From positions 23,342 to 87,341 of the IMG/VR virus record IMGVR_UViG_2529293038_000017: a stretch of 64,000 bases of DNA. The stretch is one strand, 5' to 3'. Source of the DNA: a virus. Lineage: Duplodnaviria > Heunggongvirae > Uroviricota > Caudoviricetes. A program made the translations under genes and the position numbers. Under the pieces are notes generated by a model that had not been told where the DNA came from, searched no databases, and was given only the letters and a program-made list of their open reading frames with translations. Positions 42,273 to 43,681 of the stretch are shown piece after piece. Within the stretch, counting starts at the first letter, position 1. Every line of letters begins with the position of its first letter.

Positions 42273-42317
42273 ATGCCGATTATATCTGACATTCAGCACG
42301 CCTGGGTGGAGTGCTAA
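42273..42317 (+). other. 14-codon upstream micro-ORF translationally coupled to ban (TAATG overlap)
   Basis: ATG 42273 with AGGAG 9 nt upstream; MPIISDIQHAWVEC; stop TAA overlaps ban ATG at 42317. Confidence 0.3.
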
Positions 42318-43681
42318 TGTCTGCATCCCCTCTTGAATCCATGCCAAATTCCCTTAGTGCAGAACAAGCTGTACTTGGTGGCTTAATGCTTGATAACTGC
42401 CGCTGGGATGAAGTTGCAGATCGTATAGTTGCTGATGATTTTTATACCAGTGCTCATCGTGAAATTTTCAGTGAGATGGAGAGGTTATTAAGTCATGGCA
42501 AACCGATTGATTTGATAACACTTGCTGAAGCACTTGAACAGAACGGTAAATTAGAACGCGCCGGTGGTTTTGCGTACCTTGCGGAGATGTCAAAGAACAC
42601 GCCCAGCGCGGCAAATATTTGTGCTTATGCGGATATCGTTCGTGAACGCGCGGTTGTTCGTGAAATGATTTCCGTCGCAAATGAAATAGCCGAAGCTGGA
42701 TATGCGCAGGATGGCAGGGGCAGCAATGAATTGCTGGATATGGCCGAGCGCCGCGTTTTTGAAATAGCTGAAAAACGACAAAAGAGCGGTAGTGGTCCAA
42801 AAGATATCGCCAGCATTCTCGATGCAACGGTATCTCGCATAGAAGAGTTGTTTCAGCGACCACATGATGGTGTAACGGGGCTTGATACGGGATTTACCGA
42901 TCTCAATAAGAAGACGGCAGGGCTTCAGCCGTCCGATCTCATCATTGTCGCCGCCCGCCCATCTATGGGGAAGACCACGTTTGCGATGAATCTCGTCGAA
43001 AATGCCGCAGTTCGTAACGATAAGCCCGTATTGGTTTTTAGCCTTGAGATGCCGAGCCACCAGCTGATGATGCGCTCACTGGCTTCTCTTGCACGCGTTG
43101 ATCAGACTCGTATTCGGACAGGGCAACTTAACGACGAGGATTGGGCGCGGGTTTCTGGCGCAATGGGTATTCTGTTGGACAAGCAGAATATTTTTATTGA
43201 TGACTCAAGCGCCCTGACACCTACAGAGCTTCGTTCCCGCGCTCGTCGTGTTTATAAAGAAAATGGTGGTTTGAGCATGATTATGATCGACTACCTGCAA
43301 CTTATGCGCGTCCCCGAGCTGCAAGATAACCGAACGCTGGAAATTGCCGAGATTTCTCGCTCACTGAAGGCGTTGGCGAAGGAATTACAAGTACCGGTGG
43401 TGGCATTGTCACAACTTAATCGATCGCTTGAACAGCGTGCGGACAAACGACCGGTAAATTCAGATTTACGTGAATCAGGAGCAATTGAGCAGGACGCAGA
43501 CCTGATCATGTTTCTGTATCGCGACGAAGTTTATCACCCGGATAGCGAAATGAAGGGCATTGCCGAGGTAATTATCGGAAAGCAACGAAATGGCCCAATT
43601 GGCACGGTGAGATTGGCTTTTAACGGCCAATACTCACGGTTTGATAACTATGCTGGTGCTGACTGGCAAGAGGATTATTAA
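42317..43681 (+). CDS. ban: DnaB-family replicative helicase (Ban)
   Basis: Walker A ARPSMGKTTFA, DnaB-type motifs; start set to ATG 42317 rather than track GTG 42311. Confidence 0.9.
   Translation: MSASPLESMPNSLSAEQAVLGGLMLDNCRWDEVADRIVADDFYTSAHREIFSEMERLLSHGKPIDLITLAEALEQNGKLERAGGFAYLAEMSKNTPSAANICAYADIVRERAVVREMISVANEIAEAGYAQDGRGSNELLDMAERRVFEIAEKRQKSGSGPKDIASILDATVSRIEELFQRPHDGVTGLDTGFTDLNKKTAGLQPSDLIIVAARPSMGKTTFAMNLVENAAVRNDKPVLVFSLEMPSHQLMMRSLASLARVDQTRIRTGQLNDEDWARVSGAMGILLDKQNIFIDDSSALTPTELRSRARRVYKENGGLSMIMIDYLQLMRVPELQDNRTLEIAEISRSLKALAKELQVPVVALSQLNRSLEQRADKRPVNSDLRESGAIEQDADLIMFLYRDEVYHPDSEMKGIAEVIIGKQRNGPIGTVRLAFNGQYSRFDNYAGADWQEDY

Follow-up and report, generated by a model that had tools for sequence, protein, structure and literature searches.

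Two of the closest described relatives of the arrangement reported here are found upstream of plasmid replication genes. In plasmid R1 the 24-codon leader open reading frame (ORF) tap precedes repA, and its translation permits translation of RepA; in the IncI2 plasmids the leader ORF for RepR, a product of 19 amino acid residues, overlaps the repA start, and the requirement for it was tested with a stop-codon mutant (PMC8053102; PMC5883639). We describe here a candidate for the same kind of control in front of ban, a gene for a DnaB-type replicative helicase, in a 64,000-nucleotide (nt) stretch of a P1-type phage-plasmid (IMG/VR record IMGVR_UViG_2529293038_000017, positions 23,342 to 87,341; hereafter the window, to whose numbering coordinates refer unless stated otherwise). 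A 14-codon ORF (the micro-ORF) ends on the ban start codon, and runs through one arm of a predicted hairpin that buries the ban ribosome-binding site (RBS). With moderate confidence we propose that the micro-ORF is a leader ORF delivering ribosomes to ban, and that ban would be translated mainly by these ribosomes.

The micro-ORF lies at 42273–42317 on the + strand and consists of 14 sense codons and a TAA, encoding the peptide MPIISDIQHAWVEC. Its codons are ATG (42273–42275), CCG ATT ATA TCT GAC ATT CAG CAC GCC TGG GTG GAG TGC and the TAA at 42315–42317, and codon 4 is the rare AUA (42282–42284). The ban coding sequence (42317–43681, + strand, 454 amino acid residues) begins at the ATG used in the curated P1 and P7 records (in P1, AF234172, 1365 nt from the equivalent ATG), and the Prokaryotic Genome Annotation Pipeline (PGAP) selects the same ATG in six RefSeq/GenBank plasmids. 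The overlap of the two reading frames is therefore genuine: the micro-ORF stop and the ban ATG (42317–42319) have one A in common, with which the former ends and the latter begins, forming TAATG at 42315–42319. This much was correctly located in a first-pass annotation of the window, which had described a 14-codon ORF ending in TAATG over the ban ATG; the micro-ORF is annotated neither in the curated P1 record nor in RefSeq. Both starts have a Shine-Dalgarno (SD) sequence with similar binding to the anti-SD. For the micro-ORF this is AGGAG (42258–42262, + strand), the same in all haplotypes, with a duplex of -6.8 kcal/mol to the 3′ end of 16S ribosomal RNA and a gap of 9–10 nt to the ATG; for ban it is GGAG (42308–42311, + strand, inside GGTGGAG at 42305–42311), with -5.9 kcal/mol, 5 nt before the ATG. 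The micro-ORF/ban junction has both the shared stop and start nucleotides and an SD 4–9 nt upstream within the preceding ORF. A longer ORF of 25 codons, starting at GTG 42240 or ATG 42243, was considered and rejected, having no usable SD (a GGTG abuts the start).

New evidence comes from a predicted RBS-sequestering hairpin at 42288–42321 (+ strand; -15.8 to -17.0 kcal/mol), paired as GACAUU-C-AGCAC-G-CC(UGGGU)GG-A-GUGCU-AAUGUC. The 5′ arm (42288–42302) corresponds to micro-ORF codons 6–10, the loop occupies 42303–42307, and the 3′ arm (42308–42321) contains both the GGAG and the AUG of ban. At -17.0 kcal/mol the hairpin is more stable than expected by chance in two shuffle tests (z = -3.58, with 0 of 200 shuffles equally stable, and z = -3.16, with 8 of 2000), and only 0.47% of 40-nt windows on both strands of the 64 kb are as stable. 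The same hairpin is seen in folds of 40, 71, 101, 128, 146 and 330 nt, and in a partition function over 42031–42380 (350 nt) each of its 13 pairs has a probability of 0.955–0.994, the ban AUG being unpaired with a probability of 0.008. The signal is a local one, in that the larger leader folds (146 and 330 nt) do not exceed their shuffles in stability (z ~ -0.2). Opening the region from -14 to +5 around the ban ATG costs 16.0 kcal/mol, the fourth highest value among the 58 long-ORF starts in the window (median 7.9), and 10.4 kcal/mol is needed at the micro-ORF site. Because a hairpin of about -17 kcal/mol holds both the SD and the AUG of ban in these models, direct binding of a 30S subunit at ban on free mRNA should be rare. 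The hairpin was also considered as an RNase III site or an intrinsic terminator, and was rejected as either since the stem is short and interrupted and lacks a U-tract. Rfam searches gave no family at E <= 1 in 41000–43000 besides the transfer RNA (tRNA) match and its reverse-strand shadow, and only noise (E >= 5) in 42025–42330.

Since the 5′ arm of the hairpin is part of the micro-ORF, translation of the micro-ORF requires the ribosome to open the hairpin, and termination then takes place precisely at the ban AUG. The anatomy of the leader is computed, and from it we infer that ban depends on micro-ORF translation. In the proposed sequence of events, ribosomes would load at the moderately accessible micro-ORF site (AGGAG and the ATG at 42273), translate the 14 codons and unwind codons 6–10 on the way, and would terminate at the UAA (42315–42317), where the ban AUG is reached by a step back of one base and is preceded by the GGAG at a distance of 5 nt; either the same ribosome would re-initiate, or a new 30S subunit would enter the transiently open site. 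Ban output would then be the product of a weak micro-ORF initiation rate and the efficiency of re-initiation, and this DnaB analogue would be held at a low level that depends on the operon transcript being actively translated. The first-pass annotation had also suggested that the two may be coupled, arguing from the overlap; the overlap by itself is weak evidence, because such overlaps are routine in this operon and ban has an SD of its own, but the hairpin supports the suggestion independently.

The micro-ORF peptide itself would have no role in this scheme. A functional small protein was looked for among the natural variants and homologues: there is no sign of purifying selection on the peptide (6 nonsynonymous changes, namely A10T, W11R twice, V12M, V12G and C14Y, and 5 synonymous ones), with 3 of the 14 residues changed in a common haplotype, and leader homologues occur only in P1-type elements. 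Regulators acting at the RNA level were sought as well. No promoter- or terminator-like site for an antisense RNA was found on either strand of 41900–42500, and, for a trans-acting RNA, the rest of the 64 kb contained no complementary stretch of 12 nt or more; this search left out some 30 kb of the phage, which lie outside the window. The only direct repeat of 12 nt, at 56185, is inside a coding region and at chance level, and was discarded. In an hfq mutant, ban is the sole replication gene to be over-induced late (transcriptome preprint), which is a faint hint of RNA-level control, and a host small RNA acting on the leader is possible.

Several points weigh against dependence of ban on the micro-ORF. 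The micro-ORF RBS had been called good in the first-pass annotation, and its AGGAG does pair well with the anti-SD, but the gap of 9–10 nt is close to the longest that still functions, and a weak stem-loop (42227–42261, + strand; UCCUGAU at 42227–42233 with GUUAGGA at 42255–42261; -7.9 to -9.9 kcal/mol in the predicted fold) partly masks the SD, which is unpaired with a probability of 0.22. The layout, taken to be an ORF that starts with ATG, has 5 or more codons and an SD of 4 nt or longer, and ends in a stop that overlaps the ban ATG, arises in 1.3% of 20,000 dinucleotide shuffles of the 120-nt leader; with about 100 genes in a P1 genome roughly one such layout is therefore expected per genome, so that the ORF alone proves nothing, and the layout is notable only in combination with a hairpin in the 0.4–0.5% tail. 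The ban SD is well spaced, and if little helicase is needed breathing of the hairpin could suffice. One natural haplotype, 42313 G>A, has the hairpin weakened to -6.9 kcal/mol. We found no published experiments on ban coupling and no account of the micro-ORF, the older P1 literature being beyond our reach. The shallow conservation of the leader, the covariation that falls short of significance and the lack of a micro-ORF in the nearest non-P1 homologue, all described below, belong on the same side.

A GGAG 5 nt from the ban ATG, a micro-ORF layout reached by about 1% of shuffles, a micro-ORF SD that is distant and partly masked, and a weaker hairpin occurring in nature are also what might be seen if the hairpin alone were functional, as a passive throttle that keeps Ban low while ban initiates on its own SD during breathing and the micro-ORF is incidental. 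We regard this as possible though doubtful. With an opening energy of ~16 kcal/mol and an AUG unpaired with a probability of 0.008 direct initiation would be very inefficient, and one would have to accept as a coincidence, on top of a hairpin that is itself in the 0.5% tail, that an ORF with a 5-nt SD core traverses the 5′ arm exactly and terminates on the AUG.

The extent of conservation was examined with the equivalents of 41955–42620 from 84 related loci (44 unique sequences) and from six plasmids, the latter being the most divergent among the 439 plasmid records that contain the ban leader. None of the 84 loci or the six plasmids differs in the SD, ATG, frame or stop of the micro-ORF. However, diversity is shallow, with all comparable sequences at least 97% identical, and just 5 of the 126 possible single substitutions in the micro-ORF would create a stop (counted from the sequence); an intact ORF would thus be expected anyway and is uninformative. 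Upstream and in the first part of the hairpin, 42223–42295 has only two singleton variants (73 nt, 44 unique sequences). Within the hairpin, four variable sites fall in the loop or a bulge, 42302 C>U retains a G-U pair, the pair 42296–42314 varies from G-C to G-U to A-U, and one pair is lost with each of 42308 G>A and 42313 G>A. Most of the substitutions thus spare the predicted pairing, and the covariation (one compensatory pair, equalled by 228 of 500 shuffles) is compatible with the hairpin but not significant. As a separate observation, we note that 42296–42314 is a substitution hot spot with 9 variable sites in 19 nt, and that a linked haplotype of 42300A, 42303A, 42306A and 42314T is present in E. 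coli, E. albertii and E. fergusonii plasmids; this could reflect either a recombination patch or tuning of ban translation.

Searches for more distant leaders gave few additional comparisons. With 42200–42420 as a blastn query the matches are P1-type records only, at 97% identity or more; the IMG/VR search returned only copies that are at least 99% identical, the most divergent plasmids carry the same haplotypes again, and a genome scan for non-P1 relatives found only chromosomal dnaB (70–79% identity) with unrelated upstream DNA. By tblastn there is one intermediate Ban homologue, in the P1-like Cronobacter phage JK004 (83% identity), which is the nearest outside P1. Its upstream region (2440–2494 of locus L170) has a terminator-like hairpin, AAAGGGCGGCAACGCCCTTTTCTTT, followed by AGGGAG and a GTG start; the leader is thus different and has no micro-ORF.

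These comparisons bear on a further explanation, that there is no regulation at all, the ORF and hairpin being chance features of a junction formed when dnaB was captured, with ban expressed adequately anyway. Conservation confined to a near-identical P1 clade, a different leader in JK004, covariation that is not significant and 146- and 330-nt folds that match their shuffles all fit such an origin, and constraint may be weak because ban is non-essential for P1 (PMC10695390). We nonetheless think it unlikely, as the local hairpin is a clear outlier and 42223–42295 is almost invariant in the 44 unique sequences, as opposed to the hypervariable patches in the RNA upstream.

A third alternative makes the micro-ORF a sensor. 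AUA is read only by lysidine-modified tRNA-Ile2, and a pause at AUA codon 4 might partly open the hairpin such that Ban would respond, in the manner of the erm leaders, to the supply of tRNA-Ile2 or to its lysidine modification. The tRNA gene trnI (41955–42030, + strand; anticodon CAT; tRNA match of 64.7 bits; 89% identical to E. coli ileX), which is curated in P1 as tRNA-Ile2, the AUA reader, is encoded 243 nt upstream of the micro-ORF and is co-transcribed with the ban leader, and AUA accounts for 5 of the 28 isoleucine codons of ban. If the idea were true, processing of the tRNA-ban transcript would be linked to helicase synthesis, with phage tRNA supply and maturation gating the unmasking of the helicase start. 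We consider it very improbable, however. The ribosomal helicase acts about 11–13 nt beyond the position at which the P-site codon begins, from which we estimate that a ribosome whose A site holds the AUA would get no further than the first few pairs of the stem (~42290–42292), leaving the SD paired; moreover a single AUA in 13 codons of an AT-rich leader is unremarkable and the micro-ORF contains no known stalling motif. The AUA codon and the upstream tRNA-Ile2 may be a coincidence.

Finally, it is scarcely credible that ban begins at GTG 42311–42313, which would make the TAATG overlap irrelevant: this GTG is in the ban frame within the micro-ORF, as the first-pass annotation had pointed out while doubting its use, and no start codon precedes it in the open frame, but it overlaps or abuts the SD (a gap of 0), has changed to GTA in a haplotype that occurs naturally (in 2 IMG/VR loci and in plasmid NZ_CP122941), and is passed over in favor of the ATG by the curated P1 and P7 and the PGAP annotations.

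Translation of ban mainly by ribosomes from the micro-ORF is the reading that we favor, and the genomic context of the leader is as follows. The window has the organization of a P1-type phage-plasmid, with 41900–42700 being 100% identical to Punavirus P1 MH422554 and, from the tRNA onward, 99.9% identical to reference P1. The curated P1 record AF234172 has ban in the distal part of the C1-repressed ban operon, which consists of P1ban/P2ban with the operator Oban, a dicF-like region, tRNA-Asn, tRNA-Thr, tciA-B-C, trnI, ban and dbn. Transcription of the operon is controlled by C1/Bof, and it is established from P1 genetics that Ban is able to replace the host DnaB. Ban is 70–79% identical to chromosomal DnaB proteins, with homology that begins only at residues 6–10.

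The upstream part of the operon departs from that of reference P1 in several respects. In place of tciA-tciB-tciC there is a gene for an SPFH-domain lipoprotein of 275 amino acid residues (41100–41927, + strand); the same replacement is found in RCS47 and vB_EcoM-Ro157c2YLVW, with P1 homology resuming at the tRNA. An IS100-like element of the IS21 family (39098–41050, - strand; istA at 39942–40964, istB at 39163–39945) with a 6-bp target duplication is inserted 50 nt upstream of the SPFH gene and is absent from the otherwise near-identical MH422554. This element is placed between the C1-controlled Pban (~37141–37186) and ban, and ban transcription in this plasmid therefore may not follow the textbook route and may perhaps be uncoupled from repressor control. 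A segment of ~166 bp (38096–38261) at the plp/upl side of the operon is missing from both MH422554 and reference P1.

Between the tRNA and the ban leader lies an unannotated conserved structured RNA (42043–42223, + strand), which forms the 5′ part of the tRNA-to-ban spacer directly after tRNA-Ile2, and which we regard as context that is outside the coupling device. An RNAalifold consensus of 20 representatives has 34 pairs, 6 of them with compensatory changes, and invariant stretches alternate with hypervariable hairpins. Related versions (e.g. positions 2420–2745 of locus L167 and 2577–2770 of locus L005) are common to D6, phiV10, TL-2011b and Stx2c phages at 81–91% identity, in unrelated gene contexts and usually beside a tRNA, and no Rfam family was matched. 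The phiV10-type version is about 90 nt longer and abuts a tRNA-Arg(UCU); this longer version has matches in 1064 of 5426 complete E. coli genomes, where it has no PGAP annotation, and the RNA may represent a new class of phage-borne non-coding RNA. Homology to these phages ends near 42222, and the P1-specific ban leader (42223–42316, + strand), which extends to the ban ATG, begins where the shared RNA ends, which raises the possibility that ban was inserted at the 3′ part of the element or took its place. As judged from the sequence, the start, the SD sequences, the hairpin and the micro-ORF come together in this one 94-nt P1-specific block, at the apparent junction with a captured dnaB.

The phage-plasmid family for which P1, a model phage, serves as prototype is very common, and the amount and timing of Ban are relevant both to replication of these elements and to their coexistence with the host. 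If confirmed, the coupling proposed here would mean that the ban operon is regulated post-transcriptionally as well as by C1/Bof at the level of transcription, would settle the ban start codon for annotation, and would provide a further natural example of leader-ORF coupling, on a captured gene of host type, with no change of concept.

Control through a leader ORF is of a well-known kind, although it is unannotated for ban, and the ban leader can be compared with several described systems. The nearest are Tap-RepA and RepR-RepA, in which likewise a short leader ORF (here 14 codons) has its stop next to, or overlapping, the start of a gene for replication, the downstream RBS is masked in a structure on the path of the leader-ORF ribosome (at ban only by predicted fold), and the peptide is not the effector. 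They differ in that an antisense RNA (CopA or AS RNA), together with a ProQ/FinO protein in IncI2, acts on the leader ORF to set copy number, with no counterpart evident at ban, and in that their target is an initiator and not a helicase, the coupling at ban being predicted. RepY-RepZ of the IncI1 plasmid ColIb-P9 and RepB-RepA of the IncB plasmid pMU720 (cited in PMC8053102) are similar in that leader translation unmasks a structured RBS and is followed by re-initiation at an adjacent start; they additionally need a long-range pseudoknot after unfolding, and none was seen at ban, where no search was aimed at pseudoknots.

Within P1 itself there are two further points of comparison. The ban-dbn junction (43679–43683), as well as those of tciA-tciB-tciC, likewise overlaps by 1 nt and has its SD within the preceding ORF, this being the usual junction in the operon; at ban-dbn a TAATG is preceded by GAGGA. 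The start region there is unstructured (-7.8 kcal/mol, with the start unpaired), whereas the ban start is buried in a strong hairpin and its upstream partner is a micro-ORF of 14 codons with no plausible protein function. The second is the immI region, where, as Riedel, Heinrich and Schuster reportedly found in the 1990s, translation of ant depends on translation of a small overlapping upstream ORF, icd, and a c4 antisense RNA is involved. This is a case from the same phage of a downstream gene dependent on a small upstream ORF. The differences are that icd encodes a functional protein, of 73 amino acid residues (PMC11897509), and is under antisense RNA control, with no such regulator evident for ban. 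By analogy with these systems, the ban leader is a plausible new instance of the known mechanism of leader-ORF coupling.

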